A stretch of 63,973 bases of DNA, filler included, from Hausera hauseri (GCA_046269625.1; 9 parts of 9 records of this genome joined end to end with filler, not necessarily neighbours in it); one strand, 5' to 3'. Shown: positions 7,256 through 56,113, counted from the whole stretch's first letter. Numbers and translations are program-made. Notes: generated by a model from the letters alone, not told the origin.

Positions 7256-7444
7256 CTTACCAGGATAGACAGAGGACCTTATGAAGTGATTAAAACTACA
7301 TCAACCACGGTTTATATAAATAAAAACGGCAAAGAGGAAGTCATATCAATTCAAAGAGTAGTCAAAACGGAAATAAGACCAAACAAACGCTATAATTTCT
7401 GTTAGAACAAAGCAAAATTAGACTATACAAACAAAGAAAAGTAA

Positions 7445-8791
7445 ATGTCGTCGATAGTGACTAGACCAATATCGTATGGACAAATAGTCCTCGCCTTATC
7501 GTTAATTGCTTTGCATATACCAAAGACAAGGTCGATAACCCAAACCGAAAAACTACAATATGGGGCAAGACGGAAAGATATCCAAAATTTACAATCGATT
7601 AGAGTGTACGACATGGACTGGAGCAAACCATGTGCGTGGTTCGAAGCAAGCGAACTTATTCAAAGCCACGTGAAATTTCAAATAATATTTTTAACTGGAT
7701 CCACAATGAGAACACGCAATTTTCCCTATGGTATTCATAAAAAATGTTGCGATTTGGACTTTGGACGAACCTACCGATACAGATTTCAGATGTTCTATCA
7801 TAATCAGCCCTGAGCCCAAGCCTATAGAATCACAGAATTCTCAATAAGTATGCCTTAGCGAAATGACACAAATCGAGACAAAACAGACGAGATAATCCGA
7901 AATACTGACCCATTTAAAAGACTCTTAGACTATAACATTATTGGGATCACCAAGGACTTAGAGCAACGATGTATTCGAATTAAAACCAAGGTGGAACTGC
8001 CCAGAGACAGACAAATTTCTGTCCGATTTATAACACTGGATGCCTCGATTCCCACTCCACAATATTGCTATCTGGCCCGACGACGACCTACGGTGTGCTG
8101 TGAACTGCAACTAGGACAAGAGTATCAGTTACAACTCGTTTTGTACAATACGTACCCCGGAGAACGAAGCACTTATTTAAGGGGATACCGTCCAAAAATC
8201 GGAATATAGAAGCTTCCGTTTACAACCACTACGAGAAAACCGTCTACTGTTCCAAGCACAACTCTCACTACTGCGATTGTCACTTCGGATAAAATACTCG
8301 GAAAAGAACTAGGGAGTATAAAGGTTAAGATTTCGGGAAAAAGTAATAGAATTCTAATTTACGCTGAAGAAACGTTAAATCAAGACGTCGAACTTGAATG
8401 TCGCACCCTGCAAACAAATCAAGTTATAATCGTACGAAAGAATAGTCAGGAAACGGAATGCAAATCGTTAAGACCGCAGCATAATTATATAGTCCGATTC
8501 ACCGCAAAGGGTAGGAAATCTAGGACTTTTACAGTACGAACTCCGGGCAACAAAATTGCGGTAATGCAGCATAAAGATCTTAGTACTCAAAATGCGTTTA
8601 CCACGAAAAGTTCTATCGAGGAAAACAAATTGCCGATAATAGCCATATTTAGTTCGTCAATTTTCGTTCTTATCATATTAACGACGACGATTTTTCTAGT
8701 TTCCAAATATTGTAATAAACGCACTAAAAATCGAGAGGGAGATAAGCGAGTAAAATGGCATCAAGACGGATTTTATGATAGCATAACCTGA
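7445..8791 (+). pseudogene. type I membrane protein with three FN3-like domains (B1), in-frame stops
   Basis: Signal-like YGQIVLALSLIALHI; repeats CCDLDFGRTY, CCELQLGQEY and CKSLRPQHNYIVRF; Thr-rich stalk; TM IIAIFSSSIFVLIILTTTIFLV; tail FYDSIT*. Confidence 0.75.
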
Positions 8792-8896
8792 CAATTATAG
8801 ATCAGGTTATCCTATAATCAGAAATAGAAAATGTTTTGCTTCAAAACAATGATCTGTCTTAGGATTAATCTTTATTTTTATTTTAGCAGAGTAAGT

Positions 8897-9980
8897 ATGG
8901 CCGAAAGGGTGAAGAACTCAGCACACAGTCTCAATAACGATATTGACGATTTCCTGTAGCAACACGTAACAGTTCTCAAACCTACAACCAAAAGCTTATA
9001 TCGCCAGATTGGAGAAAATCTAAAAAATAAAACTTATATAGAAATCAATCAGGAAAGCAAGATACCGAATGGATTGAAATGGGGCACAGAGAAAAATCAA
9101 TTAATCCGATTATATGCAGTGCGAAGCCCAAAAGATGCACGAGCATACCTATTAAGAGACATGATTCCATACGAGCCAACGCATCAGCAATTGTACATAC
9201 ATGTCGTTGATGGAGAAATACAATACGGGATCGTAGGACAATCCTGGAGTACTCAAAGTGGGCAACAATGGAAATTTAGTACATATGAGTTATGTTGCTA
9301 TAGCTTCATGAATTACGTTTTGGAGTTCAGAATCGCATAACTTCCAACCAAGCTTATGTTTGAATTAACCTTAAGAACAGAAGTGCTGAGGCAACTACCA
9401 TCTATATTGTGTATACAGAAGCCCTCCGTGGAGGAGATAGAACGAAATGGAGAATCATTCAGGCTAGTTTTAGACGGCAGGAATACTCGGATCCTAGCCG
9501 TAAACTATGGGGAAAAGGACGATGGATGGCATACTCCAATTGAAGTGTCTATCCGAAGTATAGATGGAGAAGAGATTATAAAAAAATAATCTCACCTAGA
9601 ACTAAAGTAAAAGATACGTTTCCCGATGTCACAGAATCACAAGGTTACAACTTGAAAAGGGCAAAAACTTCCTAGAAGTCCAAGAAGATATAAGCCATTG
9701 CTTGTATGGATTCATTGTGACCGGATTTAGAGTACACGAGATGTTAGAAAAACTAGGAATACGACAGGAGTATATAGTCGGAATTCGTGAATTGAGTCGT
9801 AACCCAACAGTAGTAAGCCGAACAGAAAGTACACTTCGGCATCGAGCGAATCACAGTCCAAGATAATGCTAGCGGCCATGAATGGTGAACAATCTAGATT
9901 TCCTAAATTAATGTCAGCAAGTCATCGAACGAGACTCATAAGAGACATTTACATCTCATTCTGATGGGAACACGACTGGA
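8897..9980 (+). pseudogene. accessory ORF: unknown N-terminal domain plus REX4/ISG20-like (DEDDh fold) exonuclease-like domain (B1)
   Basis: ORFs 9074..9340 and 9356..9589, continued manually: IEVSIRSIDGEEIIKK.ISPRTKVKD..EVQEDISHCLYGFIVTGFRV..GIRE..MSASHRTRLIRDIY. Confidence 0.65.
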
Positions 9981-10803
9981 AGCCCAGAGACCTATACAAA
10001 ACGTGATCTTTGACAGCAACCCAAAGATTTTATTGCAAAAATTCCAAAAAGGGTTTAACGAATACCCGATACATAGACAAATTAAACCTCAAGAACATAG
10101 TAGCTTCCAAATAACCATTCGGAATATTCCAGTCCAATTGCTCAAACAGGAAGGATCGAAGGGGAACAACCAGCAAGGCTTATCCACCAGCCATCGCCAA
10201 ACTGATCACGGACCGACCTCCCAAAAAGCAACGGAAAACTGAAACTAAACACTGGAGAACCTCATAGAGGACAAAAAACAAAATCCTCCTTCTTCGAATA
10301 TATCATTAGGAAGAAGAGTAAGACCAGCAAAAACTACCCCGAAGAAGTGAGACAGTCTAATAGCAGTCTTATACCAAGTATTAAAGAAAACGCGACAAAA
10401 CCCAAGGATAAACCAAAAAGGCGGAAAGCCGAAAATTCCAACGAACAAAAAAGGAGAATGTGAACTCCCGAGGATGAAAATAATTGATAAGAACCAGCCC
10501 CTATTGTAGTGACCGAATTCGGTCAAGTTAAAGAATACACCAGAGTGCTCGTTATGGCCGAATATTACAGCAAGGGCTAGATAAAGGAAGCCATAATCTA
10601 TGTATCCACTGTCCCTAGAAGAATTGTAAGCGGAAACGGATACGCCCGAGAAGACATAACCATTGGTAAATACCTAGCCCCGATATTTCAATCAAAGAAC
10701 GGAACAAACCATCTGACTATCCCAATGGAAACTCAAGTTTGAGTGCAACTTAAGAGATATCACAAGAGAACGGGAATACCCGATTTGGATAAACAAGAAA
10801 TCG

Positions 10804-11154
10804 TTGAATGGACGTTGGTCACCGTGTCAGATGACCCTAAGTAAAGCTCCAGACCCCAAACAAAAACGGCTATATGGATGCTTATACCAAGACAAAAAAG
10901 GACTAGTATTCGAGCGAATTGAAGTTGACGAAAATCTCGTGGATATGGACGGAGGCGAGAAAGAAGAACGCCCCGTTTGCGACGCGAACCTATATCAAGG
11001 ACTTGTGGTGTTAGATAATAAGGATTGCACCCATAAATACTGTCGGTATTGCTTGGAAACGTGGACCCTGAGAAATGGGAAGACGACCTGCCCAGTATGT
11101 AGGGCTGAAACTACGAGGTTGCGTTACTTCTCAAATGGAGAAAGTAAAAAATAG
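10804..11154 (+). CDS. RING-HC finger protein fragment
   Basis: RPVC-x15-CTHKYCRYC-x12-CPVCR; first ligand is Arg (CGC, one change from TGC). Confidence 0.8.
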   Translation: MNGRWSPCQMTLSKAPDPKQKRLYGCLYQDKKGLVFERIEVDENLVDMDGGEKEERPVCDANLYQGLVVLDNKDCTHKYCRYCLETWTLRNGKTTCPVCRAETTRLRYFSNGESKK

Positions 11155-11320
11155 TGGATATTTCCCAAAAAAGCTACTACATCGTACCACTTCGATTTGA
11201 GATCTCCACACGACGAAACAGATTCGGAAGCGGACTTGCGCGGACGAATGAACCGATTACGCGGCACCTCTTATGACGCAATGGGCACATCCGAGAGTAC
11301 CGTTTAGGGAGGATTAATCT

Positions 11321-11981
11321 TGTAAAAAGATCGAAAATCATAAATTTTATATATGTATATCAAACTGAAAATTAAATTGGCTAACCAGAATTAGTCAGTA
11401 AAATCGATTATATCCACAACTGTTAACTGGAAAATTCTCAGAATATTCCGATGAAATTAGTAAATGCATGCAGACAGCATTAGTTATTGGTTGGAATTAC
11501 TAGAAAAGTGGCTGAAAAATAATTACACAGAAATTGGACATCACCAACGGCTATATAAATTCGAATCAGTTAGAAGTCAAAGAAGAAAAATTGACGAGGA
11601 AAAAATTCAGTAACCTGTATTGACTAAAAAAGGACTTATATTCAGAAGTGATTCGATTCTACTGTATTGGCTTGTTATTCGGATTATGGGTATACTGTTT
11701 TTATTTGGTTAATAAATTGTATTTTCTAACACTCCTTATAGTTTTCCGTCGCTCCTTACGAGGAACTTGAACTACATTAAGGTTAAACTAAAATTAGAAT
11801 ATATAGTTAGGACTAGATTTTTGTTAACCGCAAGAAGTCGCACGCAGTACCAGTATTTAAAATTTAGTGCAATCATTCTAACGAGAACGTTAGAACGTAC
11901 CTGATCTTATTAATTTATTAATCGAAGTATTTACATTGTTATAGTTGGGTGTTTGATAGGACTCACCGTCAACTACTAACA
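11321..11981 (+). repeat. family B LTR (boundaries inferred)
   Basis: Purine tract AGGGAGGA at 11306-11313; TGT start; TATATAAA ~11552; AATAAA 11711; ends CA two nt before TGG. Confidence 0.6.
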
Positions 11982-11983
11982 AT

Positions 11984-12000
11984 TGGCTACCCTAGCAGGA
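11984..12000 (+). promoter_or_regulatory. primer binding site candidate
   Basis: TGGCTACCCTAGCAGGA; its reverse complement TCCTGC-TAGGGTA-G-CCA has tRNA 3'-end geometry (T-stem strand, 7-nt acceptor strand, G discriminator, CCA). Confidence 0.6.
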
Positions 12001-12418
12001 CAGTTTGCACTTGCTAGACTTGACTCTTAGTGAAAAATAACTACATTGGCGATCAGCGCTACCACATCAAATAATTGATTCTAGAATTGCTGTGAACTTA
12101 AAAATTCGGGATTTATAAGAAAACCTTCAGCAATTTAACGACATACTATTGATATAAGAACGAATATTGATAGATATAAGTCAGACGATAACCTAAACGT
12201 AATTCTAAACTGTAAGGAGAATATTAATCTATGCGAAACGCGCCACAAAGTTTACAGACAATATAAAACGTTGAGTAGGCGTACCTTATGAGACTAATTT
12301 AGTTAGCATTGAACTTATTGATTTAAACGCTGCTGGACAGCCTATAGAATTTAAAATTCCTGATAAGAGAATTAGAATCCGTAAGTTAACTAAGCAAAAT
12401 TTAATAAACGTTGAAAAC

Positions 12419-12501
12419 ATGGTCGAAAATCAAACAGTAGAGCAGAAGTTGGACATTTTAACATTAAAATCCCTGAATCTGCCGGCGTATGATGGAGACC
12501 C
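12419..12501 (+). CDS. gag: family B gag N-terminus (cut by the gap)
   Basis: MVENQTVEQKLDILTLKSLNLPAYDGDP; LPxY/FDG is typical of Gypsy Gag N-termini; lies downstream of the PBS. Confidence 0.6.
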
Positions 12502-12601: not shown

Positions 12602-15600
12602 ATGATATACTCACCAAGAGAACCTAAGAATATTGAAACTAGATCGACAGTTTGGGACAACCCAAGGTTAAAAACCTTCCAACATATTGAACTGCATATT
12701 AACAACCGGGAACCGCTAATTAGTACTCATAAAATGGAAGAACTGCTTGTAGAAAATAATGAATGATATCCAAACGAGGAGTTAAGGCAGTTGTCGGAAA
12801 ACATAATATCCGCCCCAGAAGTAAGAATAAACGGACACAAAATATCAGTGACTAAACATTCGAAAGTTGCATCAAACTGTTTTGCAACCGTGATAGAAAG
12901 AAGACCTTTAGCCAAAATCATTATTGAAAATTGGGAAGTTTATGCGCTAATTGATACGGGTTCCGAAATGTATTACATCAGAAATGATTCAGTACGTCAA
13001 ACGCTAAGAGGACAGTTATGTTCGCCGTCTACGAAAGATCCAGGCAGTACGGGAGCTTTTGGCCAAACGTCGAAACCAATGTTTAAATGGAACAAAGAAG
13101 TCCATTTAATTGGACGAACATTTCGGCATGAATTTGCAATCATGGAACATTTAACTAATGATGTCGTTCTAGGATGCGATTTATTGAAAAGGCTACCAAA
13201 TATAGCAGACGACTTACAAACAGGAAGGCTAATTGAGATTAAACCGAAAAGGGGCGTGAAGAACGCTAAGGATAGAAAATTCGGGGAAGTGTGGATACCA
13301 GTAGACAAGAACATTCCGCCGAGTACGGAGATAATAATGTACGCACAGATTCAGAAAAATGACGATCAGCCAGTATATTTTGAGCCAAGGGAAACGTTAA
13401 ATCCTTATATAACACTCAGTAATGTACTAACAAAAGTACACTCCGGTCGTGTACCAATTAGAATAGCTAATAACGCGCAGACTCCTGTCAAGCTCCATGC
13501 TTATACTACTTTAAGAGACACGTATAGAGTATTGTCGATAACTATCGAAGAAAAACCTTATAAATATGCTGAATTTCCACCTCACGTCCAAACCAAGTTT
13601 TTACCTGAGTCTTACTGTCGGTTCTATGAACTATTGTTTAGATATAAATCGATTATCGCTAAGGACGAGGAAGATATAGGTAGAGTGAAAGCGTTAAAAT
13701 TGACTGCTCCGCTTAAGAAAAAGCCTGGTTCGAATGAAGAAATAGATCTGGAGGGTCAGAAGATGCCAAAATGGTACTTTCCACCACATTTATTAAGGCC
13801 TGAAATAACTAAAGAAGTTGAACGAATGCTTAAGGCAGATATAATTAGACCCAGTTACAGATCCTGGTACTCGCCTATCCTGATGGTTAAAAAGAAGGGC
13901 ACTACGAAGCACCGATTTTGTATCGATTACAGAGCTCTAAATAATCTTATGATAAAGGATTCTTTCCCATTGCCATCAGTGAAAGAGGCATTAGACCAAC
14001 TATCGGGAGCAAAATGTTTACCACTCTGGACTTACAATCCGGATATTGGCAAGTGGAAATAGAGGACGAAGATCGCTACAAAACGGCGTTCAAGACACAT
14101 GATGGAGTGTATGAATTTAACGTTATGCCGTTCGGTATTACTACTGGACCGGCCATATTTACGAGAATGATGAACAAAATGTTAATGGAATTGGATCATG
14201 CTTTTGCATATCTAGATGACGTAATGATAGCATCAAAAACGGAAGAGGAACACTTAAAGGATATTGAACATACGCTGATGCGTTTGGAACAAGCCGGCCT
14301 AAAATTAAATCCAAAGAAATGCACATGGGCTCAAAATGCAGTATCCTACCTTGGCCATATAGTTGGAGAGGGAGGATCCAAACCAGATAAGTCGTTGTTG
14401 AATAAAATATCGGATTAAATAGAACCACAAAATCTGAAAGAGTTGAGACACTGGTTAGGACTCTGCGGATATTACGCAACCTACATACCAGATAACTCAA
14501 AGATTAATGCGCCTCTATATTGTCTGCTTAAAAAGGGATTAAATGGAAATGGACAGACGTCGAACAGAAAGCCTTTGACAAGATGAAGAAGATATTTACG
14601 AGCGAACCTGTTTTACGGTACCCGGATTTTAGCTTACCGTTTATAATTAAGACAAATGCCAGTAAGGAATGTATTGGATATGAGTTAGCGCAGAAAAGAG
14701 AGGATGAAGAATTGGAACATCCGATTGCTTATGGAGGCCGTTCTTTGAAGAAAGCTAAAAAAAACTATTCCGTTACCGAGCTAGAGACTCTAGCCGTGAA
14801 AGAAGCACTGCGTCTTTTTAATGTGTATGTTTACGGTCAGAAAATTATAATCGTCACCGATCATAAGGCCGTTACAACCTTAAGAGCTGAGCAAATAACC
14901 TGACATGCAGACTATACAGATGGATCAAAGAAATCTCCAGATACAATATCGAATTCCAGTATAAGCCGGGAAACAAACATGTAGACGCTGATACACTATC
15001 GAGATTAAAGACTATGACAAGCGCAATCATTGTGTTGAAGAAAGGCCAACTTGAGGAAATAATAGACCGCCAACGCGCGTTAACTATATATAAGGCGATC
15101 AAAATTTCAAAAGAACAGAAAAAGGGTAATGTTATCCAGCAGATTATAGAATTTGCTAAGAAATATGTTATGCCAAAAGGACGACAGTTAAAGAAACATT
15201 TACACAGATATGAACATAAATACTGCGTCTTAAATGACGGGAACGAAGGAGGTATTCTATATTACGAAAGAAAAGAAAGGAAGTTGATAATTATTCCAAA
15301 GAGCTTACGAACCAAAGTATTGATGTCAGAACACGATTCATACTTAGCCGGACATATGTCCTGGAAAAAAACATTAGAAAGAACAATAAATAAATATTTT
15401 TGGCCGAGTATCTATATCGATGTAAAAAATTGGATAAATGCTTGCGAAGTATGTGCGACTAAACAAAAGAAAACGAAAAACTACATGGCGGAATTGAAAC
15501 CAATTAATGTGCCCGATAAATCCATGCAAGCTATGTCAATGGATATCGTAGGGCCTCTGCCTACGACCCACAAGAACAATAAGTATATCTTAACGTGTAT

Positions 15601-16390
15601 TGATTGATTAACTCACTTCGTCGAGCTGATAAAATTAATTGATCAAAAGACAGAGACTTTAGCAGAAGCAGTAGTAAGAAAAATTATTTGTCGATACGGG
15701 CTCCCAGATCAGATACTCACGGATCGAAGAAGAAATTTTATTAGTGAACTTTTCGAGAAGATTACCAAAATATTTGAAATCGAACGTTTAACAATTACTG
15801 CATATTATCCTCAGTGTAATGGAATGGTCGAACAGATGAATGCTACCGTCATACGTATATTATCAACAGTAGTCGCGAAAGATCAAAAAGATTGGGACGA
15901 ATTTTTGGTAGGAACGCAGTTTGCAATTAATACCACACCACATCCAGCGACAGGATTTACACCATTTTTTTATGATGTACGGACGTGAAGCCGTGTTTCC
16001 CACAGATTTTGGAATGATGCCATACACAGTCAGTTCCAAAGATTTAGAACAGAATTTCCCAAAAGTATTACAAATGCGGTTGCAAAAGTGTTGGGAAATC
16101 GCTAAAGAACTATCCCAAGAATATCAAGAGCAGTTTAAGAAACAATATGGTAAGAAAGCAAAACCGCATGATATAGAACAAGGGAATTGGATTTACGTAC
16201 ATTATCCGGTAGCCAAAAAGGGAGCCTCACTAAAATTGACTCGTACGGGTAGAGGACCATATGAAGTCACCAGAGTCACACCAACCACAGTGCATATGAA
16301 CAAAAATGGAAAATAAGAAATTGCGTCAATACAGGGAGTTGTCAAGACAGAAATACGACCCAGCAAACGTTATAATTTACGTCAACGTGA
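12602..16390 (+). pseudogene. pol: family B pol copy B2 (PR-RT-RH-IN)
   Basis: ALIDTGSE, RFCIDYRALN, LDLQSGYWQV, YLDDVMI, NYSVTELETLAV, HDSYLAGH..CEVC, MDIVGPLP, GRGPYEV, KRYNLR. Confidence 0.95.
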
Positions 16391-16399
16391 GGTAAAAAA

Positions 16400-17832
16400 T
16401 TCATCAATAATTACTAGACCAATATCATATGTTCAGATAGCCTTAGTATTATCGTTGATTGCCTCTTACATCCCAAAAATACAAGCACAATGATGGCACG
16501 ATAAATCTTCGTTAGGAGATATATAAAATTCGGAAAAGTGGATCAAAATCGGAAGTAGTCGAATCGGAAAAGAAACCAACAGCCGAAGAAATTCGAAAAC
16601 AAGAAGACACCAAATTATTACAATCATTGACAATCCACTATTATTCAGCAAACTCCGTATGCGTTGGATTTAAGACTTGAAAACCGCATTACGATTTCGG
16701 AAGGTTTCAAATTGTCTTGCTTGACTTAGCCACAAAAGCCACCAAAAATTGTGATTTGAAACTCGGAGAAAATATTCAGTGCTGCGATATAGATTTTGGA
16801 CACACGTATAACCTCACCTATCGTCTATACTTACCAGATTCATCTGAAGTTTATATTGAAACAAAGCCACATTCTCAATTAATCATTCTCGCATGGAACA
16901 AACATTATGAAGTAAAACTGAATGAAATATTACATTCTACGGACCCAGATATAAGAATACTAGACGAAAATATCCAGAGAATCGCTGTGAATAAGGACAA
17001 ACAATGTATTCAAGTGGACGCTAGAAGAGGATTAACCTTCAGTCAAAAAATTAGTATCACGTTTGAAGCAACAGTTGGACCGACTCCGAAAATAGACTAT
17101 TGTTCAATTCGAGCAGGCGTGCAAAACCCATGCTGTAAAATACCCGTAAACCAAGACTTCAACATAAGATTCGACCTATATGAAGTACGGCCTAATAAAC
17201 CAAGTATACAATTTTGAACTTACTACCCAGAAAATAAAATTTGGAAAATTTCGGCAGAGACAACTACAAGAAGACCGATAACTCAAGTCAATACCATTAC
17301 GGCAACCGTTACGTTGGCCAGTGTGCCGGATAGAGTATTAGAAAGCATTCCTATTAAATATTCGGTATATCGGTCTAAAATCGTGTTCTTCGTAGAAGGA
17401 AAACAAAACTACAATGTATACATAAATTGTCGGACGACGTATAATAATCAAGTGGTGACGCTATTTAAAAATACTTATCAAACAGAGTGCAGCTTATTAA
17501 AACCACAAACCGAATATATAGTACAAGTATTTGCAGAAAATAAACAAAATCAGAAGATTACATTGCAAACTTTAGATGCAATTCGCTCAGAATCCCATAC
17601 ATACGAGGACATAGATGAGCAGACCACAAATCCAATCACTACACAAGCTCCAATGGGATTAACTACGCTACCAATTGCACCTATCTCCATACTGTCAACG
17701 TTTGTTCTAATTACACTAATTGCGATTTTTCGACTAGTCACCAAAAACTGTTGTTCTAAGAGTCATAAAAATTCAGAATGGGAACTAAGGGAATTGGCGA
17801 ACCCCGTAGACCCATATGATAAGATAACCTGA
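16400..17832 (+). pseudogene. FN3-like type I membrane protein (B2)
   Basis: Homologous to 7445..8791; CSLLKPQTEYIVQVFAEN fits the FN3 LxPxTxYxVxVxA consensus; TM segment and PYDKIT* tail. Confidence 0.78.
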
Positions 17833-17841
17833 CAATTACGG

Positions 17842-18487
17842 ATGAGGTTATTCTGTCATCAAACAAAGAATTGGTTTTGGTTTAAAACCATCCTTTGTTT
17901 TAAGATTAACCTTTATGTTCTTTTGTTCAGATTGGTAAGTACTCAGACCCAGATGGAACCAAGCCGAATTAGTATCGACGCCAAGGAAGTTCCGAGCCGA
18001 CTTAGGATCGATACGGAGGAAACGACCAGTCGACTTAGTATCGACGAGTTCTTACAGAAATATGTGACAGTCCGGATCCCAAATTCAAAGGCCGTCTATA
18101 GGCAAATTAACACCGAATTACAAGGGAAGAATTCTGTTTCATACGGGAAAGTTGGCGAAATCCTAAACGGTTTGAAAGGAACGACTGAGGAGGCCAGAGC
18201 CGTATATTTTTACGCATGGAGGGAAGACAAAGATGCTAGGACATACCCCTTTAAACCGATCGCTCAATATCAACCAGATAAAGAACAGACGATATATGTG
18301 CATTTGGCAGACGGGGAAATATACTATCGGCTGAAGGATCAAAAATGGGATTCTTTCCAAGGAAGGCAAAGCCGGTTTAGTACCTTTGTATTTAACAGTA
18401 GGAACCTCCGACATCACGAATTGGAATTTCGCGTAGCTGCACGGCCAGTAAAAATGATGATCAAAACAACGGAGGAAGAAACAATGA
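17842..18487 (+). CDS. accessory ORF N-terminal domain (B2), truncated before the exonuclease-like domain
   Basis: IYVHLADGEIYY and ELEFRVAARPVK are shared with B1, B3 and B5. Confidence 0.65.
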
Positions 18488-19518
18488 CTGTCTTGACTGT
18501 TTTGACATCATTTCTATTTAAGTGATCTGTCTTTTTAATCCCGGTTAAATCGAAAAATGTTTCTCTTACTCGTTTTCTCTGGTTTATTATCCTAGAGTAT
18601 GTTTCTTCCCGAATATTCTCGAATCGAAACTTCGATTGGAATCTCATACCCATAATCACCTTCGCCTTGATTTATAGCGATGATTTGTACATTACGTCCA
18701 TCTTGGAATAGTCTAAAAGGCTGATCTAGTTCTTCCTCCTTTGGATATTGCTGATATTTAAGGTAGGTAACTGCATATAGGGTGCTTCTTCATATGTAAC
18801 CTCAAACATGAGCTTTATTGGCAGTGCAGTTATTCGAAATTCCAATTCGTAATTGTACAGATCTCGGCTGCTTAAATAGAGAGTGCTGAAACGATACCGT
18901 TTCCCTTTGTTAACATCCCAATTTTTCCCCATTATGCGGTAGTACAATTCACCTTCCGCCAAGTGGATATAAATCCCTCGGTGGTATACTGGTTCATATT
19001 TAATCATATTTGTTAAGGAGCATCTGAACTTTGTCTTATTGCATAAAAGCCTCTAGTCCTGTTTTCTTCGGTTGTACCTTTCAGGTGATTGGGGATTTTA
19101 TTGGTTTGATTGAACTCGACTAATGTATTTTCATGCATTTCAGTAGTAATTTGTTAATTTGACAGTAGATGGACTTCGATTGTGGTATCAGAACTGTTAC
19201 ATATCTGTCCAGGAAATCATTGATATCGCATTCCTTGATATCGTTGTTTTCGGCTTTCATCGTCATAGCAATAGTTACGCTTCTAAAAATAAAAAAATTT
19301 AAGGTTAATCCTAAAACAGATCATTTTTCGAAAATAGAACTAATTCTCTGTTTTCTTGGTGGAATAACCTGATTTGTAATTATCAGGAAATTTCATCATA
19401 GGTTTCGTCTCGGGGTGCCATTACCCTTAATTCTCTTCCTTCGATTTTATGACGCTTATACTGGCAATTTTTGGTAACTAATCGAAAAATCGCAATTAAC
19501 ATGATTTGTGCATATAAT
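18488..19518 (-). mobile_element. family B copy B3, inverted: membrane-protein tail plus accessory/exonuclease-like ORF
   Basis: Minus strand reads LIAIFRLVTKNC..TYDEIS*, then IYIHLAEGELYY..ELEFRITALPIK and FDLTGIKK. Confidence 0.8.
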
Positions 19519-33936: not shown

Positions 33937-33978
33937 ATTTTCTTGAATTTCTTTTAGTCTTGGTTATATTTCTTTCAC

Positions 33979-43331: not shown

Positions 43332-45699
43332 AACGTTTAAACTCAAGAACTTTCTCTTAAAATGCTATATACCGTAGTTTTATATGATGTCATTCAGTAC
43401 GCTAAAAAGATAAAAGTCCCCTGTCTCGTCTGTATAGGCAAGTTAATGGAACAGCGAAATTGTCAAAAGCATTGCCAGCAAATTTATCATTGTTCCAAAA
43501 CAAAGTCTGTCCAAGCGAAAAGCAAGTTATCCTTCAAACAAATACATTATCCGAAGCCGTGAAAAGAAAGTAATCAGACGGAGTTGGGAAAATTTCCGTC
43601 AGGAAGAAAAGGGGCCAATTAGAAAACAAAATAATTCCGAAAGTGACAAACGAAAACGACCTCCGATCAAAATCTAAATGACATTAAACAAATGTTCATT
43701 TCACTCACATCCGAACATTTTGAAAATGGCACTTTGAGTTATCAGCACAATATCGGAAAACCGCATGATTGCTGGTGGTATCTGGGGACTATCTCGACTG
43801 CTACTAAATTGTTTATAAATCCAGCGGTTTCTAGATATTTTATTCTTGATTTATCCGTGTCACTGTTTTTCTTTTTTTTAATTTGAACGTCTTTACATCT
43901 ATTTGATTATTTTCTTCCCGCCCCGCAATTTCATTCGATGTATCAGCTTCGTTGTCTATCAACATGAAGACAGAAAATGACGAGTTATCTGATTCAGTCT
44001 ATTTGTATCGTTACCATTTCATATGAAGATGAATATTTTTATTTGGAACAAAATTCTCCCCTTGCCTTCTGGATATGTTACTATAATTAATTCATTTCAG
44101 TATTTCCTATACCGTTATCCGATAAGGTTTCATCCGAATGAGATTTGTGCTATCGTACGTTTTTCATCAAGGATACTAGTGATGGTGGTCACAATTACGA
44201 TTGGTTGTATTTTTAATATTGAATTTTAATTTTTTATTAAGCTAATGCTGTTAATAAAGCTCTCGAAGGCCTGTTCCTTTTAATGTGTGGTTCATAATTA
44301 AATTGGTTTTCTTTTGATTTTTTTTCCCAATTTTCAGTGCGACGCATTATTCAGAATAATAGACCGTTTCAAACGTTTGTTTTAAGAAGTGTTCCATCAG
44401 TGAAAAAGATAACACCGTATGACAATTTTAAAATTCGCTGCATTATATGCTTTACGAAACCAAGGGTCACCGTTAATCAGAATTTATTGGCTGAGGATCA
44501 AGGCGATGCGTGATCTGCCTCGTTGAATTGGTACATGGAAACATTGTTGCAACATTATCATGCTTCTGCAAATAGTTCTATTATTTATTTGTTTTGTTTT
44601 CTTTGGATTTTTATGCAAAAGTTATTTTTCTCGTGAAAGAGTTAAATTTTGTGTCGAACAAGTGAACTTGCACTTTATTGGGAATGAAATTTCATTGTTT
44701 GTTTTAATAAAGAAAAAAACTGAAGGAAATAAAAAAGAATATTGAATTAAAAAATAAATCAGCCGTATTTTTTGGGAAATTGTCATTCGATTTGATTTTG
44801 CCAATATCATTTAGAATCGGTTTTATTCAATTTTGTTACGAAATCATACTCAGCACAAGTCTTATCAAGACCGTTCTTTTGGGGAATACAATCATTTGCA
44901 ACTATTACTTCAACGGAATTTTATAATTTAACGACAAAATATTTTGCGATCCAAATATCGAGTTTAACCCTATGAAAAAAACGGAATTGCTTCCGAGTTT
45001 AAAGGAAGGGGAATTCTTGAACGTCAAGGATAAATTTCTTTGGTTGTTTTATTCGCTTGGTATTAATAAGAAGGAATACATTGATCATGAACGGATGTAT
45101 GCCGAAGCAGATGCCTATTGTTTCAAAATTTATCATGAAACAAAAATTAACAACGATAATTCCCTAAACTGTTTCCACTTAACAAAACATATGGTCCAGA
45201 ATTATTCTTCGCGAGTTCGCGGTGGTGCTGATTTGGATTGGCATGGTCCATGTAACCATAGAATATTCAGAATTTGATTTTGCAATAAATGTTTTTTTGT
45301 TCATTTTTATGTTTGCTCACTGCCCGACTAAATATTAGTGTGTGATTAATTACAACTTCGATTACATTTTTAGAGGCAATTTTGTTTTACTTCATTCTTT
45401 CTATCTGTTACTAGTATACGAAATCTATATAAACATGAATGTGATAATTGTATAATTTAAGGTAGAATGCGAAGACGTCAGTTTACTGAGGAAGATAGAA
45501 ATGTTGAACGATGTGTGGCTTTAAACGGATCCCATGTCGATTTGAGGATAAATGTTGAAAATAATGGTTTATTAGACATGAGACATGTTCCTCGACATAT
45601 GACACTAAAACTAAAAGAAGTTGACCGTTTGCGGTAATGTAAGATACAGTTTGGTGGTTTAGTCGAGTTTGAGAAGATTGTTGACGGTGACATTAGAAG

Positions 45700-46782
45700 A
45701 TGGAGGTTATCTCCTCGTGCACAAGCATGGAATGAAGACTTTATCGAAAATGTTGGACAAATTTTGAACGAAAAAATTGTTACGTATTCGGAATGCGGAA
45801 GTGGGTGGAGATTACGTCGGATTATTGAATATAAATTTACTGTAACAAAGACATCTGTTATTATATACTTGTCCGGACGATCATATATTAAAACACCTGG
45901 GGGCCTTCATAAGCCAAAGTTTATAGTAAATGTTCAAAATTTGAACAATAATTGTTTTTGTACAGCATTCGTGCTGTACTGCATTAAGATGATGTACGAC
46001 ATAATCATCATCGGCCAAATAATTATCTTCCATTTATGCATGAATTGAATTATGAAGATAGCGAAATGTCAATGAAATTATCTGGAATTTGCAGCTTTGA
46101 GCAAAGAAATCGACGGCTTGCAATTAACGTTTTTAAATACATTAATGATACCAATGATGTAATTGATCAGAATCAGGACGTGTTTAAAAACCCACATGTT
46201 GATATTTTGTATCGTACAAAAACCGTTCATCAAGTCGTATTGTTAACCTATTGGTACTTGAAGACTCTGACAGATTTCATTACGTTGCCCTTGTAAATTT
46301 AAATCGACTGCTGAATTTCAACAATTAGGTGATTCGAATAGGCTGCAAATGGTGTCAGATTTGTTTGCATGGCTTTATGTCAAAAGGCATATGACAATCA
46401 TGTTAAATTATGTAGAGACAATCGCGACCATACAACCCTATATGTAATGCCAACATCGAAAAGCTGTCAGTTTACCGACTGGTCTAAGCTTGCATCTCTG
46501 GCTTTTGTCGTGTATTTGGATTTTGAATCTATCTTACCACCTTGTGATGGGTTTCAACAGAAACATATTCCGGTAGCTGCTGGCTTGTTGCTTGTTCCGT
46601 TAAAGGATATGGAATCAACGCCGCAATACTACCATTTCGTAGGTGATAATTGTATTATTGACTATTTGTCATGTTTGGATACTCTGGCAAAGACTGTTGT
46701 GGTTCCATGGTATGATAGGAATACTCATTGCCCTATGTTTTCATTATCCGCTGAGGATGAGTATGCGTTTCTTCATGTATAA
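45700..46782 (+). mobile_element. Polinton/Maverick-like DNA polymerase B N-terminal region fragment, frameshifted
   Basis: GSGW, GRSYIKTP..IVNVQNLNNNCF, FEQRN..AINVF, C2H2-like HVKLC, FVVYLDFESIL and QKHIP, in the order seen in invertebrate Polinton-type pPolB proteins. Confidence 0.65.
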
Positions 46783-49700
46783 AAAACCGGCAACTTACTT
46801 ATTAACCCCATTAATATGTTTCATGTTGAAGTTAAATGTTGACAAGTATTGTATCTGTCGTTCTTGGCGTGTGGAAGGATATTTCATAGCCATGATGTTA
46901 AGTAAGGGTTTGCGATCGGTTTGTATAATAAAATGGCGAGAGCGATGAGTATGTGGGCGAAATGCTTTAAAGCAAGAACGATCGCCAAAAACTCTCGATC
47001 AAACGTTGAATATCTAGTTTTAGGGGATGTTAGCTTACGAGAGCAAAATTCTAGCGGTTGATTTTCTCCTTTGTAGGTCTGGTCGAGTATAGCACCTACC
47101 ACAGTTGTTGAAGCGTCTGTAGTAAGGATGAGTTCTGCATCAGGCTTGAGAAAAGCGAAAATGTCGACGGTCTTAATTCCTTCGCGTAACTTATCAAATT
47201 TGTCTACCAACGCAGGTGTCCAGTGAATTGGCTAATGTTTTTTACCACTGCTTAAGTGTGCAAATGGTGCTGTCAATTCGGAGCAATATGGTACATATTC
47301 ATGTACAAAGTGTCGAGAAAGCTGCGCATTTTGGTGGTCGTACGTGGAAAATGGATATTTTTAAGAGCTTCGACTTGGTCTGGTTGAGGAGAATGGCCGT
47401 CTGGTGAAATAATGTGGCCTAAAAAGTTGACGCATTTTTTGAAAAATGGCATTTGTTGAAATTGACTTGGAGATTATGGTGGTGGTGGCATTAAAATATT
47501 GCGCGAAGGTTTTCCTCGTGTTGTTTGACCGAAGACGAAACGATCAGAATATCGTCAGTGTAAGGGTGCGCAAACGGAAAATCTGAAAGAAAAGAATCAA
47601 TATGTCGCTGAAAGGTCTGTGCGGCATTTCGCAACCGAAAGACATAAACAGATACTCGTAGATGCCAAAAGGAGTAGCGACAGCACTTTTTTCTATGCCT
47701 TCGGATGCCACCGGTATTTGATGGTATGCTTTGGCCAAATCAATGGTCGAATAAATGGTAGATGAATTAAGGCGATGCAGGATGTCCTTGATATCGGCAA
47801 GGGTGACGTATCCATGTTTGTCAAGTTGTTCAACTGGCGGTAGTCACCGCATGGTCTAAAAGTACCGTCCTTTTTTGTACGGCGTGTAAGGGTGACGAGC
47901 AAAGAGATTTAGAACGGCGTACAATGCTGGGGCGTTCTAGTTTGAGAAATTCCACTTCTACGGCCTGTCTACTACGAGGTGACAGTGGTCACACCTTTTG
48001 ACGCGTTGGTCGTTGATGCTGTGTAATTATGTGATGTACAGTGCTGTTTGTAGAGAGAAACGATCTTTTTTAAGTACGCATAGACATGATATGGTAACGA
48101 ATTGCTGTAAAATTGTAGGAAACTGTGATAGATTCGGTGATGATGGTAAAACAGTTTGAGTAGTAGCGGATGTGATTTCTGAATTGTTTTGTCATGTGCA
48201 GTCAAGTGGTATTTGGTGTAAGATGGTCAAATTGAAAATGGTGTTGGATGAAGTGATTTCGTCAAGTGAATAAACATTGGTTGCAGTATCAAAATTATCG
48301 ATATTGAATCTCTATCAAATATCTATATTATTGCTTAAAAATTTGCGAATTGAATTCTTGTTATGGAAATTCAAATTATTTATTAATTTTTCCAAAACTG
48401 ACCTCCGTGTTTCGATCGACTGCACGGCAGTCGAAATGCCATTGACATGCTCAGTAATGGTGCCAGTGATGCCGTTCCTCAGACATCGTTGACTGCAGTC
48501 AACCAATAAATTATAATGCGATAGAAAATCGGACTCCAGGATTGCCGTCTGGACGTTAGCAACTGTGAACATCCAGTGGAAAAGTGAAGGAAAATTTGGT
48601 AAGATGAAAGATAATTTAGACGTTCCTGAAATGTGCAGCGGTTGACCTGAAGCGGTGTATAAGGGCTTAATTCTGAATGGTGAATTTTGTACAGGAAAAG
48701 ATTGTGGTAATAAGGGAATCGCTGCACCTGTATCAATAAGGAAATCAACGGATTACGTTGTAGGAGCGGTGATTGCAGCCTTTAAAGTAAAGACAGCAAA
48801 AGAGGCGTGTCGGCATTCAGAAAGTGAAGTAGTGCATTTGACAGAGTTTGCCGTGACTTCTGGTGGCAAATTTAGTTTCTTTGAAAAGGTGAACTAGGAC
48901 GACTATTAGAAGAAGAGGTACTACATCCATCGTTGTGTCTGGTTTGAAAGTTCAGTCTGGAATGCATTTACGGGCTTGATTTTTAAACTTTGTGCTGTAA
49001 ATGCAAACAACGGTGTCTGAAGAAAAAATTTTGTTGTAAAATTTGCACCCTAGGCAGCATTTCTTGGCATTCTTATTGAATCTGCTGTGATAATAGCAGA
49101 TTGACGACCGCGTAGACGATGGTGGCCGGTTTCTAGATGCAGAATGGGTGCGCTCAGCAGCAAAATCCTTTCACCGGGACAAGGAAAGCTCGTTTAATTT
49201 GTTGCTTATATTGTTAATTGTTGCTTGTAGTGCTGTAACGTAGTGCTGTAGGCACGTAACTTGTTTAGTTTTTGCTCTATTAATGTGTTGTTGTTTGTAT
49301 ACTGGTAGTGGCAACCGCCGCCAGAACGATTGGCGGGGAGTTTAAGTGCAAAACGTCGTGTGTTTTATCGGCTAATTCGGCCAATTTCTCAAGAGCTGTG
49401 GAGTCCGCCACCACGGTAAGTAGTAGTGGGTAGTAGGGTAAGGCGTTGAGAAAGTAGTGACGCAGTAGTTCGGGATTGTGTTCTTTAGTGACGCCGAGAG
49501 TGTGCAGATGTGCCAAAGATGTGCGTCGAAATTCTGATGGTCGTTGTGTGCCTATAGCATTGTCGTGGAAGAAGCGTTGTATGATCGTGTCTATTGAGGG
49601 TTCTGTGATCTTAAGAACAGCATTGGAAAGTTGTGAATATAGATCAGGAAGTTCAAAGATTTCGATAATGTGGTGAATTTGTGTTTTGATATTGTTAGGG

Positions 49701-50329
49701 AGTAAGTAGAGGAAATTGTGTGCCTTGGTTAAGGAATCGGGGATATTGTTTGCCTGTAGCCACAGTTGATGGAATTGCAACCATGTTTTGCTGGAGCCTT
49801 GGTTGTCAATGAAGAATTCGGTGCAGTTAGGGAAAGGAGCGGAAGAGGTAGTAGATGAAGGGTTATTAACGGAAGTAGGGGTGGGTTTTTGAAGCAGTGT
49901 TACAGATTTTGGTTTCATGGTAATTTTGTCCGCGGTGTCTATGTTTGGCGATGAGTTCATGTCACCGCGGTTACAGAATTGTATGTGGAGGTGGATATAA
50001 GTTGAAAAAGGTTGCAGTGTCCAAATGAGAGGTACTGTGAAGCCGTGGTGTGTGACGTAAAAGTCAGGTGAGCGAAGAAAATTGGAGATGGCGTTGTAGA
50101 TAGCCACAGTTTTTAAGTGTGTTAATGCGGTTGTGTAGATGTTTATTATTTAAAAAAAGGAAGAGGGAATACGGGGAGATCGTGTAGCCAGAGGCGTGTC
50201 GTGGGGCGTCAGAGAACAGTGCCGCCTGACCCAATGGTATAGGGCGGGCGGCTGGGACTTCAGTCTCGCCGCGGCGAATCGCAAACTTCGGTGTAACCGA
50301 GTTCCCACGCATGCAATGTTTCTCCATGG

Positions 50330-50335
<6 letters not shown>
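46783..50335 (-). mobile_element. family A copy A3 (diverged): leader, gag, PR, RT, RH; truncated at both ends
   Basis: ORF 49280..50107 gag, FLIDTGAA, RPCGDYRQLN, LTTDAS, YSTFDREFLAI. Confidence 0.9.
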
Positions 50336-51274
<939 letters not shown>

Positions 51275-51726: not shown

Positions 51727-51826
51727 NNNNNNNNNNNNNNNNNNNNNNNNNNNNNNNNNNNNNNNNNNNNTTAATTAATTAANNNNNNNNNNNNNNNNNN
51801 NNNNNNNNNNNNNNNNNNNNNNNNNN
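51727..51826. other. artificial contig linker
   Basis: N-run with TTAATTAATTAA. Confidence 0.97.
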
Positions 51827-54800
51827 GCACCCTTATACTGCTTACTTAAAAAAGGAACTAAATGCAGATGGACGGACGTCTAACAGAAAGCCTTCGAAGA
51901 AATGAAGAAGATATTAACAAGTGAACCTGTTTTACGTTATCCAGACTTTAACTTACCTTTTATAATCAAGACAGAAGCCAGTAAAGAAGGCATTGGATAT
52001 GAATTAGCGCAGAAAAGAGAAGATGAAGAATAGGAACACCCGATTGCTTATGGGGGACGTTCTTTAAAAAAGGCCGAGAAAAATTATTCTGTTAATGAAT
52101 TAGAAACTCTAGCTGTAAAAGAAACACTTTGTCATTTCAGTGTGTACGTATATTGGAAGAAAATTATAATTGTCACCAATCACAAGGCCGTCACAACCTT
52201 AAAGGGCCGAGCAAATAACCCAACATGTAGACTTAACAGATGGATCGAAGAAATTTCCAGATATAATATCGAATTTCAATAAAGCCAGGAAATAAACATG
52301 TAGATGCCGATGCCTTATCAACATTAAAGACTAAAACTAGTGCGATTACAGTAATGAGGAAAAGTCAGCTGGAAGAAGTAATAGATCACCAACGCGCCTT
52401 AAAGATGGATAAAGTAATTAGAATCTCAATAGAACAAAGAAAGGATAAGGTTATTCAGCAGATTATAGAATTTTGCTAAAAGGGATATCATACCCAAAGG
52501 ACGGCAGTTAAAAAAACAATTATACAGACATGGACATAAATATTGTGTCCTGAACGGTAAAGGCAATGAGGATATTTTGTATTACAAACAAAAAGGAAAG
52601 AAATTAATAGTTAACCCAAAGAATTTACGAAACCGAAATTTTAACTTCAGAACATGATTCATATTTGGCCGGACATATGTCCTGGAAGAAAACACTAGAA
52701 AAAGTAATGAATAAATATTTTTGGCCTAGTATCTACATTGATGTAAAAATTGGGTAAATGCATGCGAAGTATGTGCCACTAAGCAAATGAAGACGAAAAA
52801 CTATATGGCCGAATTAAAGCCAATTAATGTGCCGATAGACCTATGAAGGCCATGTCTACGGATATTGTAAAACCCCTTCCTACAACTCACAAGAACAGTA
52901 AATATATCTTAACGTGTATCGATCGGTTAACTCATTTTGTTCAGTTTATAGCATTAATTGATCAAAAGGCGGAAACCTTAGCAGAATCTGTAGTAAAAAG
53001 AATTATTTGCCGATACGGACCTCCAGACCAAATACTCACCGATAGAGAAAGAAATTTCACAAGCGAACTATTCGAGAAAATCACGAAGATTTTCGAAATC
53101 GAACGACTAAAAACTACTGCATATCATACTCAGTGCAACGGAGTGGTCGAATGGATGAATGCCACCGTCATACGCATATTATCAACAGTAGTAGCAAAGG
53201 ACCAAAAGGATTGGGACGAGTTTTTAGAAGGAACCCAATTTGAAATTAACACCACACCACACCCAGCGACAGGATTCACTCCATTTTTCATAATGTATAG
53301 ACGTGAAGCCGTGTTACCCATGGACTTAGGAATGATGCCATACACGGTTAATCCCGAAGAATTAGAACAAAACTTCGCGGAAGTCTTACAAACACGGTTG
53401 CGGAAGTGTTGGGAAATCTCTAAAGAATTATCCCAAGAATACCAAGAGCAGTTTAAAAGCAATATGATAAGGAAGCAAAACCTCATAATATAGAACAAGG
53501 AAACTGGTTTTATGTGCATTATCCAGTAGCTAAAAAGGCACCTCATTGACTCGTACAGGCAGAGGACCGTACGAAGTTACCAGGGTGACGCCAACTACAG
53601 TATATATTAACAAAAATGGAAAGGAAGAAGTCGTGTCAATACAAAGAATTGTTAAGACAGAGATACGACCCAACAAACGTTACAACTTACGCCAACGCAA
53701 GAAAAAATCCTCCTCAATAATCATTAAACCGATCTCGTACGTTCAGATAGTTTTAGCATTATACTTAATTGCTTCTTTTATTCCGAAAACACAAACCAAA
53801 GGGTGGCACGATGAATCTACACTGAAAGATAATTACGTAACTAGGAAATGAGGAGCAAGATGAGAGGTTAGGAAAACGGAAAGAAAATCATCGGTCGAAG
53901 AAATTCAAAGGTCACTACAGTCAATGTCGATTCGCTATTACTCGTCCAACTCCACATGTGTTGGATTTAAGGTGCAGAAACCACATCCCAAATTTGGAAG
54001 ATTCCAAATCGTCTTAGATGATGTGATAACAAAGGAAACCAACAATTGTGACTTCGAGCTTGGAGACAACATGCAATGTTGGAACGCAGAATTCGGACGC
54101 ATTTATAACCTTACCTACCGTTTGTATCTACCAAACTTATCCAAAATCTATGACACAAGGCCACCATTTCAGCTAGTTATTCCTCCTCGGAACAAAAATC
54201 ATGGAGTATAACTAAAGGAAATGATGAGATCTACCAAACCAGACACAAAAATTTTAGACGGGAATATCCAGAGAATTTCGGTTAATAACGCAAAGCAGTG
54301 CATTCAGGTAGGCACCTGGATAGAGTTAACGATTAATCGAGAAATCAGTATCGGAATGATTCCGAAAATACAATATTGTTCTATTTGCACGGGTATACAA
54401 CACCCCTGCTGCAAACTACTTGTGAACCTAGAATTCAAAATAAAGTTTGACTTATACTAGATACGGCCTAACCGACCAAGTATACAATTACGAACTTACT
54501 ATGCAAAAAATAGAATTTGGAAAATTTTAGCGAAAACCACGACCAAAAAGATTAACCAAACTGTCACCACAAATAACATACCTAAAACAGAACTGGAGAG
54601 TATACTTATCAAATTTTCGTCCCATCAGTATAAAATCGTGTTCTTTGTAGAGAAGAAACAGAATTACGATATATACGTAAACTTTCGGACAACGCATAAC
54701 AACCAAATTGTAACATTATTTAAAAACACCGATCAAACAGAGTGTAATTTACTAAAACCGCAATCTGAATACATAGTACAAGATCATGCAGAGAACAAAC

Positions 54801-56113
54801 AAACCCTAACAATTACATTACATACCTTAGACGAAACTCACGCAGAACCGCATAAAAATATATGCGACGAAACTATAACGCCCTTTACTACTAGAGCACC
54901 ACTAGGATTAACTGCCTTGCCGATTGTATCTATTGCAGTACTGCCGACATTTGTTCTCATTACGTTAACCGCGATTTTTCGATTAGTTACCAAAAATTGT
55001 CATTTTAAGCGTAAAGGAAATATAAAGCGGGAACTGAGAGAACGGGGAGACCCCATTGATCCATATGACAAAATAACCTGACAATTACAGAATGGGTTCT
55101 TCTGCCATTTGATAAAAAATGGTTTTATTTTAAAAATGACCTTTATTTTAAGAATAATCCATATTATTTATTTCCCAGAATCGAAAACAGTGGAATGTCC
55201 GAACGACGTAGAATCGACGAACGAGAAGGAAGAAACATTTCCACCTGTCGAGTTAGTATCAACGAATTTCTTCACAACTATGTTACTGTTCTCCTTATGA
55301 ATTCAAATTCAATTTATCGAGAAATACATAATGAGCTGCACGGAAAGGGCCATCATAAATACGACCAGGTCCACGCCATACCCAGTAATTTAAAGCGAAC
55401 GACCGAGGAAGATAAAATCGTCTACCTCTATGCTATAAGGAAAGATCGTGATGTAAGAGCCTATTAACTTAGACAATTAATAAATTTCAAAATCGGTCAA
55501 GATGTGTTCATCCACTTAGCAGATAGCGAGATATATTAAAGATTACAAATTCAAGAATAGATTACACAAAAAGGAAGAGAGTACAGGTTTAGCACCCTAA
55601 AGATCCAAAGCGAAGACTTACAAAATAAGGAATTGGAATTCAGAGTCGCCGCTCTTCCCGTCAAAATAATTATTGAAGTAACGAAAGAGGAAGAAAGAAA
55701 AAACATGTTACCACCCCTAGAATTTCGGGTTAGACCGTTAGAAGCGGAGGTAGTAAAATCTTTGTATTCCTATAGATTGGTACCCCACACTAGAAACACT
55801 AAAATTATTGCTGTGAGCTGTGGCAAAGGAAATGAAGCGGACAAAATCCAGATGGAAATTTCAATCAGGGAGACGGACGGAACGGAATTATATCACACAA
55901 TAATTAGCCCAAGGAAACGGATCAGAGACTTTCTTTGACCAAACAGGAATCCGTAAAGAAAACTTGAAAGAAGGAAAAGATATCAATAGGGTACAAAATG
56001 AACTGGCCCATTGTCTGTATGGATGTATCCTTATCGGATATCGAATAGAAGAAATTGTATCGTTACTAGAAATTTCTTATTCAGAAATAGCAGGAATAAG
56101 AGAACATAATACG
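51827..56113 (+). mobile_element. family B copy B5: RH, integrase, FN3-like membrane protein, accessory/exonuclease-like ORF
   Basis: Integrase ORF 52843..53493; 53546..53851 links GPY and KRYNLR to the signal segment; 54638..55081 FN3/TM/PYDKIT; 55633..56113 exonuclease-like. Confidence 0.9.

Follow-up and report, generated by a model that had tools for sequence, protein, structure and literature searches.

The window analysed here, meaning the whole stretch of about 64 kb (63,973 nt) from Hausera hauseri (GCA_046269625.1), consists of nine unlinked contigs joined by N-spacers. Across four of these contigs lie five partial copies of a giant retroelement that we call family B: B1 (7256-12501, plus strand), B2 (12602-18500, plus), B3 (18501-19518, minus), B4 (27619-36747, minus), and B5 (51827-56113, plus). 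Blastn and tblastx comparisons show that the copies are colinear, as had been claimed in an earlier reading of the DNA made from the sequence alone (the sequence-only reading), which described five diverged copies overlapping by homology; we also agree with its statement that no single contig carries the whole element. All copies are decayed, with numerous frameshifts and stops. B3 is inverted at the end of the contig of B2 and comprises a transmembrane (TM) tail, a spacer, and an accessory open reading frame (ORF) that runs into its exonuclease-like part; the head-to-head junction (18480-18620) falls inside the accessory gene and is either a rearrangement or an assembly join. B5 comprises RNase H, integrase, a second membrane protein, the spacer, and the accessory ORF with its exonuclease-like part, and is cut by another repeat: a distinct short element, present at 23603-23715 and 56114-56225 in copies 84% alike, starts exactly where B5 ends. 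The summed colinear pieces amount to 15.2 kb with one long terminal repeat (LTR) and without the middle of gag, which makes the earlier minimum of ~16 kb a fair estimate.

All five copies, decayed as they are, belong to a single Ty3/Gypsy (Metaviridae) family of high copy number. In DNA, B2 is 71.4% like B4 over 2730 nt and 75.1% like B5 over 3407 nt, B4 and B5 are 73.2% alike over 945 nt, and B1 matches B2 and B5 at 66-75% in short pieces only; the protein identity of B1 to B5 is 38%. B2 contains the end of a pre-protease linker, protease, reverse transcriptase (RT), RNase H, and an integrase with a GPY-type C-terminus (12602-16400, plus), and the Pfam order RVP, RVT_1, RT_RNaseH, Integrase_H2C2, rve in B2 and B4 is that of a Ty3/Gypsy pol. 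RNase H identity is 89% between B2 and B4 and 82% between B5 and either of them, and in an RNase H tree of 25 rows the three form one clade (support 100/99), with tips of 0.06-0.11 on a stem of 0.83. The pol of B4 is therefore not outside the B2/B5 clade, the placement that would have told against the sequence-only reading. Moreover, B2 is nearer to B4 than to B5, which places B4 within the range of copies that have the second membrane protein. In run X1, 30,420 contigs match B4 and 4,434 match B1, and they cover all 30 bins of each copy; the charged insert, the envelope gene (env), and the RING region are thus parts of the family. These three regions, the spacer, and the primer-binding site (PBS) region are repeated many times in X1, although summed depth is not a copy number; rarely matched are positions 10056-10405 and the central part of the putative LTR. 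An origin of the insert or env as a one-off insertion was considered and rejected, as both are multi-copy in X1. A word-based search with the RT returned 17 matches, all distant relatives at ≤46%; no relative of the B2 pol was found in viral_contigs, and the 11 loci retrieved from metagenomes belonged to distantly related Gypsy elements (30-43%), in which nothing matched env, the second membrane protein, the accessory gene, or RING.

B4 reads on the minus strand from the end of gag to the integrase N-terminus, where its contig stops. The 3' end of gag (36428-36747) holds a degenerate CCHC-type zinc knuckle, recognised by eye and without a Pfam match, whose position equals that of the knuckles in the relatives P0024, P0031, and P0052; the window contains two ends of gag only, and profile searches gave no match to a gag capsid domain. 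Next comes a charged insert of ~2.8 kb rich in E, K, I, and L (33595-36346), broken by stops and one frame change. By its sequence it is likely a coiled coil; it has no family match in Pfam or further profile searches and no usable Atlas match. A ubiquitin-like domain follows (33340-33594). Its sole Pfam match is ubiquitin (E 0.067), three of its four PDB matches are of ubiquitin type (E 0.5-1.2), and a profile of four like stretches from relatives ranks its ORF first of 1099 (E 0.002); the matches, weak as they are, concur with the domain proposed earlier. Behind it, at 33142-33231, is an AT-hook-like RPxGRP motif, without a Pfam match, that is also present in P0070 and P0031.

Between the knuckle and the protease, B4 encodes a gB-type (Monjiviricetes-like, class III) fusion glycoprotein, whose full extent (30743-32680, minus) is broken into seven fragments. 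Three of these are matched by PF24664, above or near the cut-off, and a profile of 12 intact relatives finds six of them significant and in order, spanning positions 13-581 of 643 in the hidden Markov model (HMM); the seventh is weak (HMM 585-617, independent E value 0.48). Its ends carry signal-like and TM-like stretches, judged by eye. A HMMER scan with one env fragment as query retrieved 48 relatives, the best at 39% identity. The remainder of B4 (27619-30742) consists of the linker, protease, a dUTPase-like spacer, RT, RNase H, and the integrase N-terminus; the dUTPase-like spacer has no Pfam match, and its label is taken from a review of the planarian Burro element (PMC6431247). Pfam and the env profile thus bear out both the class III fusogen and the order gag-insert-glycoprotein-protease-RT-RNase H-integrase that had been read from the sequence. 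The linker said to join B2 to B4 is indeed shared, although tblastx recovers only 28 aa of it (43% identity, ahead of the YPNEEL block) and B2 stops short of the glycoprotein.

Behind the integrase, family B encodes a second membrane protein, found in B2 at 16401-17829 and in B1, together with the integrase C-terminus, at 7256-8788 (both plus). In B2 and B5 the integrase C-terminus reads in frame into a hydrophobic signal-like stretch. The protein is of type I: three beta-rich repeats make up its ectodomain, and behind them lie a TM segment (~17656-17757 in B2) and a tail of 25-30 aa. The order integrase-membrane protein-accessory ORF, as previously described, is present in B1, B2, and B5, and its tail is found in B3. 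The B2 protein matches Pfam fn3 with an E value of 0.026. We modelled the third domain from B1 (8312-8551) with an alignment of B5 and four relatives; the model has seven strands and a predicted local distance difference test score (pLDDT) of 86.9. Foldseek gave 49 hits with E<=0.001, of which almost all were fibronectin type III (FN3) domains. FN3 domains likewise dominate the top 50 structural matches of VIA-align, the best of which had a Z of 10.8 with a root-mean-square deviation of 2.0 over 79 residues. In this model, the third domain of the second membrane protein folds as an FN3 beta-sandwich of seven strands. The FN3-type surface protein of the sequence-only reading accordingly holds for one domain of the three. 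A word-based search with this ORF gave no match among proteins of 358-2000 aa. In all four copies the tail ends in YxxI plus one residue (8774-8788, 17815-17829, and 55064-55078 in B1, B2, and B5), which resembles an endocytic sorting signal; the tails of relatives have a Y-x-P-P motif in its place.

Intact relatives combine a fusogen with a further membrane protein in one element. We scanned 20 sequences, 15 long env matches (of the 48) and five cluster members, one of the 20 proving to be a bacterial repeat protein without relation to the rest. In five of them (P0024, P0026, P0062, P0070, and P0073) the ORF, 2627-4844 aa long, extends past the integrase, and all five have env before the protease and a second hydrophobic signal/TM pair after the integrase. 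In four of the five, the post-integrase part includes a domain with the pattern C..L.P.T.Y.I, an FN3-type motif. This domain aligns with domain 3 of family B with an hhalign score of 20.6 (maximum of 30 shuffles, 14.5), and a profile of the four relatives' domains ranks the B2, B5, and B1 ORFs 1st, 4th, and 7th of 1099. Env and pol occupy a single ORF in the intact relatives, with which B4 is colinear but frameshifted, and the B4 env falls among the relatives that have both fusogen and FN3-type protein, with moderate support (Shimodaira-Hasegawa-like approximate likelihood ratio 92, unstarred). A single pol clade of family B and these relatives is not rejected (approximately unbiased test, p 0.29). 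From these comparisons it appears probable that the fusogen and FN3 genes share one element in family B. The composite element proposed from the sequence thus draws support from intact relatives that join both proteins in one ORF; no contig of the window carries both.

The cargo of the relatives includes extra proteases, ankyrin, and Bcl-2, with ankyrin in the 4844-aa ORF and Bcl-2 before env in another; the Bcl-2 piece compared with the pre-env stretch of B4 gave a pairwise score of 9.6, and nothing was found. Several extra retropepsin-like domains, some after the integrase, are present in P0070 (up to seven Pfam stretches), P0031, and P0026. Residues 106-300 of P0062, upstream of env, contain a DEDD-like motif set (hhalign 20.8 over 12 columns against an exonuclease set), at a position that differs from that of the exonuclease-like part of family B. 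The NCBI record of P0024 calls it a hypothetical protein and assigns it to a Flavobacteriaceae metagenome-assembled genome; most likely this is animal DNA that was mis-binned.

Downstream of the FN3 gene is an accessory ORF (B2, N-terminal domain, 17953-18500, in the frame of the membrane protein; B1, 8897-9863; both plus). Its N-terminal domain is 38-51% conserved across the four copies, with no match in Pfam or PHROGs, no usable Atlas match, and a model pLDDT of 36. Judged by eye, the C-terminal part is reminiscent of a DEDD exonuclease in which the acidic catalytic residues are missing, and we presume a likeness to REX4/ISG20. This assignment, the pseudo-exonuclease of the sequence-only reading, was not confirmed: a frameshift splits the domain in every copy, the C-piece scored 15.2 against nine bacterial and phage exonucleases (shuffle maximum 15.0), the N-piece scored 11.1, not above shuffles, and there was no PDB, Pfam, or PHROG match. 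In B1, a broken, low-copy linker region (9907-10716, plus) leads to an ORF piece (10717-11151, plus) that ends in a C3HC4-type RING finger (~10972-11103), multi-copy in X1, with 7/8 ligands identified by eye and a Pfam zf-C3HC4 match of E 1.1e-6 (28.9 bits against a cut-off of 21). No in-frame fusion of RING and accessory ORF is visible in B1, and a host-gene origin of the RING contig region was rejected. There follow a polypurine tract (PPT)-like run (11306-11313), a putative LTR (~11321-11981), and a PBS-like motif (11984-11995), all on the plus strand. The LTR is proposed from the single PPT-like run, TG..CA ends, and the PBS-like motif, and no partner LTR occurs in the window; 9-10 of the 12 PBS letters match Arg-type ends, and the PBS region is high in X1. 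The last ORF of B1 (12139-12501, plus) is probably the gag of a tandem or circular-junction copy, an assignment from position only, as a gag profile of four relatives gave no match. Of the RING-LTR-PBS-gag tail read earlier from the sequence, the RING is upheld by Pfam, the LTR stays putative, and the gag lacks a profile match.

Taken together, these observations suggest an element of over 16 kb whose single polyprotein would comprise gag, a ubiquitin-like insert, a gB-type fusogen, pol, and the FN3 protein as a separate attachment or adhesion protein, a reading to which we assign a probability of roughly 60%. By means of two signal/TM pairs, both the fusogen and the FN3 protein would enter the endoplasmic reticulum while gag and pol remain cytosolic; signal peptidase and the element's own protease would then free both surface proteins, in equal amounts. 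The YxxI tail might direct the FN3 protein to the membrane at which particles bud. The FN3 protein would bind a partner on a host cell, the fusogen would merge the membranes, and particles would pass between host cells, as those of Drosophila errantiviruses do. The accessory gene, comprising the N-terminal domain without a known relative, the exonuclease-like part, and probably RING, would be expressed from a spliced RNA through an acceptor past the FN3 stop, with leaky readthrough of that stop as a possible second route, and could counter host ubiquitin or RNA defence. A bolder extension, which we regard as doubtful, would be a widespread and overlooked clade of giant invertebrate retroelements that have evolved two-component entry like that of herpesviruses and paramyxoviruses. 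In it, the class III fusogen and an FN3 attachment protein acquired by capture would be cut from one polyprotein, and a leaky stop could also convert the FN3 protein to a RING ligase that is anchored in the membrane and acts against host receptors.

Several observations weigh against this reading. The attachment role is suggested by fold and topology only, and an FN3 fold by itself shows no function. The fold was obtained for one domain (domains 1 and 2 match each other, at 27.6, and not domain 3), FN3 homology by sequence is modest (E 0.005-0.016), and the relatives' stretches, themselves chosen by eye, belonged to the alignment behind the model. A reverse search with a profile of family B alone missed the relatives, and the second membrane protein of P0062 is without the C..L.P.T.Y.I motif. 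In B1 the frame from integrase to signal is the same, but two stops lie between them and the signal stretch is below the hydropathy threshold. The RT of family B is 39-45% identical to that of the relatives, and in the best trees its pol forms a long branch that does not group with theirs. No window contig and no X1 piece bridges env and FN3 in family B, although X1 contigs lack the length to span from one gene to the next (444 and 843 nt for the longest among the matches listed), and B2 shares no more than ~55 aa of the pre-protease linker with B4. Finally, the acceptor pattern on which the spliced route depends was set after the spacers had been seen.

The main rival to an attachment protein concerns the direction in which the FN3 protein acts, and here the spacer behind its gene (B1, 8789-8890; B2, 17830-17932; both plus) is informative. 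The FN3 protein could sit in the same element and be directed at the host, either as a decoy or adhesion molecule or, by readthrough, as a membrane-anchored, receptor-like E3 ligase with the accessory domain and RING on the cytosolic side, which would strip host surface proteins or block reinfection. The membrane ORF stops at TGA-CAA-TTA in B1, B2, and B5 (55079), and a stop followed by CARYYA occurs at 3 of 86 long ORF ends, exactly those of the membrane ORFs, against a background of 18 in 7086 stop triplets. CAR-YYA is the tobamovirus readthrough motif (PMC3159437) and has been cited for LTR elements (PMC3441728). In B2 a single stop separates the membrane ORF from the in-frame accessory ORF, and B1 keeps the frame too; moreover, ubiquitin and apoptosis regulators make up most Burro-type cargo (PMC6431247). 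Yet B3 and B5 lose the frame across the spacer and B1 has two further stops within it; the three motif copies are kin rather than independent instances, B3 reads TGA-TAA-TTA, without the C, and in plant viruses it is UAG that precedes the published motif. An in-frame RING-accessory fusion, as noted, is not seen in B1. The 99-nt spacer is better conserved than its coding flanks, but its differences fall evenly over codon positions (9/8/10), with no third-position bias as in the coding controls (10/7/25, 19/16/31, and 35/27/45). The motif also lies in the loop side of a hairpin, formed by an inverted repeat around the stop (a perfect 9 bp in B1), that is conserved with weak covariation (0.06) and may be the feature under selection. 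On balance, a host-directed role seems unlikely to us.

The same spacer contains a run of branch point, pyrimidines, and AG that resembles a splice acceptor (8865-8886 in B1, whose spacer has a high summed depth in X1); on the sense strand of the B copies this run occurs only at the spacers, in four of four. An ATG lies 10-25 nt behind the AG, directly after which similarity falls off. The extra ORF3s of rotifer LTR elements are typically expressed from spliced messages (PMC5408684), and for the accessory gene the spacer sequence suggests splicing as the likelier route and readthrough as a possible second one. A few bases past the AG, at 8891 and 17935, B1 and B2 have a splice-donor-like GTAAGT, degenerate in B3 and B5, which could permit a micro-exon or a skip to genes farther downstream.

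A different objection is that there may be no 16-kb composite, with B4 representing an env-bearing subfamily, B1, B2, B3, and B5 sister subfamilies in which env was lost or never present, and the FN3 gene a swappable 3' cargo. The missing bridge would fit this view, as would the divergence of the copies (71-75% alike in DNA, B1 being more distant), the highly variable cargo of the relatives, and the different second membrane protein of P0062. Nevertheless, B2 retains the post-env linker, the RNase H identities place B4 inside the diversity of FN3-bearing copies, and both membrane proteins are found in five of five full-length relatives, so that separate subfamilies strike us as quite improbable. 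An origin of the gene orders in chimeric assembly, by collapse of a high-copy repeat, is more improbable still and, for the internal gene order, mostly refuted: the assembly is fragmented, summed depth is very high, the B2/B3 junction is inverted, and the LTR-PBS-gag tail of B1 could be a graph join, but four contigs with a divergence of 25-60% repeat the same order, intact single ORFs of other samples show it as well, and an 843-nt X1 contig is identical to B1.

Other parts of the window derive from the host and from other repeats. The host is an animal-like eukaryote; for one UBE4B-like fragment, the best among the named matches are from a cestode (42%) and lampreys (43%). Two host gene fragments, a Ufd2/UBE4B core and a MIOS solenoid (5496-6014 and 6205-6735, minus), are separated by <200 nt, a spacing too small for whole genes; they are possibly captured or processed pieces beside a Gypsy copy. 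A second Gypsy family, which is unrelated to the first and has a gag tail rich in cysteine, occupies 1-5070, 41136-50335, and 59791-63471 in three to four copies, with 83% likeness between the first and last contigs and no env seen in its copies. Within 45638-46779 (plus) are pieces, without a Pfam match, that we take to resemble a Polinton-type polymerase region. The window also contains an MFS transporter-like fragment (20727-21383, plus) and a Myb-domain fragment (50468-51064, minus), the latter presumably CDC5-like.

A recent survey describes transmission outside Drosophila as unexplained (PMC13524379). The FN3 protein bears on an open question, namely by which means invertebrate retrotransposons with an envelope select and enter their target cells. 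The gB-type fusogens of herpesviruses need partner proteins for receptor binding, and for gB-type retroelements we know of no partner so named. The conserved FN3 membrane protein, as part of the same polyprotein, offers a concrete candidate, and because it is intact in public sequences, the partner question becomes testable. For Burro-like giants, our results extend the annotation into a post-integrase region that was seemingly left undescribed.

Separate fusion and attachment proteins are familiar from enveloped viruses, such as F with HN or G in paramyxoviruses and gB with gD or gH in herpesviruses, where a fusogen of class III or class I is paired with a distinct surface protein of beta-sandwich type. 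Family B is an LTR retroelement known from its genes alone, and the parallel is an analogy that claims no homology. Among retroelements, the contrast drawn in the sequence-only reading, that known elements have a single env after pol, is wrong, and we rejected env after pol as the sole known layout, since GAG-ENV-POL elements are already published (PMC13524379, PMC6431247). Gypsy elements of this layout with a gB-type env have been reported by Chary and Hayashi in flatworms, nematodes, and bryozoans, with nine elements listed for Platyhelminthes (six in Schmidtea) and ten for Bryozoa (PMC13524379). Family B resembles them in its Ty3/Gypsy pol and in the gB-type glycoprotein that B4 carries between gag and pol. 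The published elements, in contrast, have three ORFs and one env, and the main text of the survey, whose prefilter excluded regions >10 kb, does not mention fibronectin, RING, ubiquitin, or accessory genes.

The Juno and Vesta elements of bdelloid rotifers also have a 3' gene after pol, a DEDDy exonuclease or an ORF3 with a TM segment. Their exonucleases retain the catalytic residues that seem to be missing from the exonuclease-like part of family B, env and the other types of ORF3 replace one another instead of being stacked, and the accessible text reports neither FN3 nor RING, both of which family B has (PMC5408684).

The closest layout is that of planarian Burro, a single ORF of 4,873 aa with gag, Smc, Ubi/SUMO-like, BCL2-like, an in-frame env that matches mononegavirus fusion proteins, protease, dUTPase-like, RT, RNase H, and integrase (PMC6431247). 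Burro/GYPSM1, which exists in thousands of copies, and family B are alike in being giant and multi-copy, in the order gag, coiled coil, ubiquitin-like domain, env, protease, dUTPase-like, RT, RNase H, integrase, and in cargo from the ubiquitin pathway (PMC6431247); the domain upstream of env in B4 agrees with this order through matches that are weak but concordant. They differ in internal length, 15-16 kb so far in family B and up to 25 kb in Burro, and the window pieces, incomplete and decayed, have no Pfam match to MATH, BIR, ankyrin, or Bcl-2. On the described layout, family B is no more than a candidate member of Burro proper. The available part of the Burro review mentions no second membrane protein, FN3, or exonuclease-like gene (PMC6431247), and we found no description of a post-integrase FN3 membrane protein in the literature searched, although Grohme 2018, its supplement, and Repbase, which were outside the search, may hold one. 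The env-pol backbone of family B is therefore of a known, Burro-like GAG-ENV-POL kind, and its new part is the FN3 membrane protein behind the integrase.

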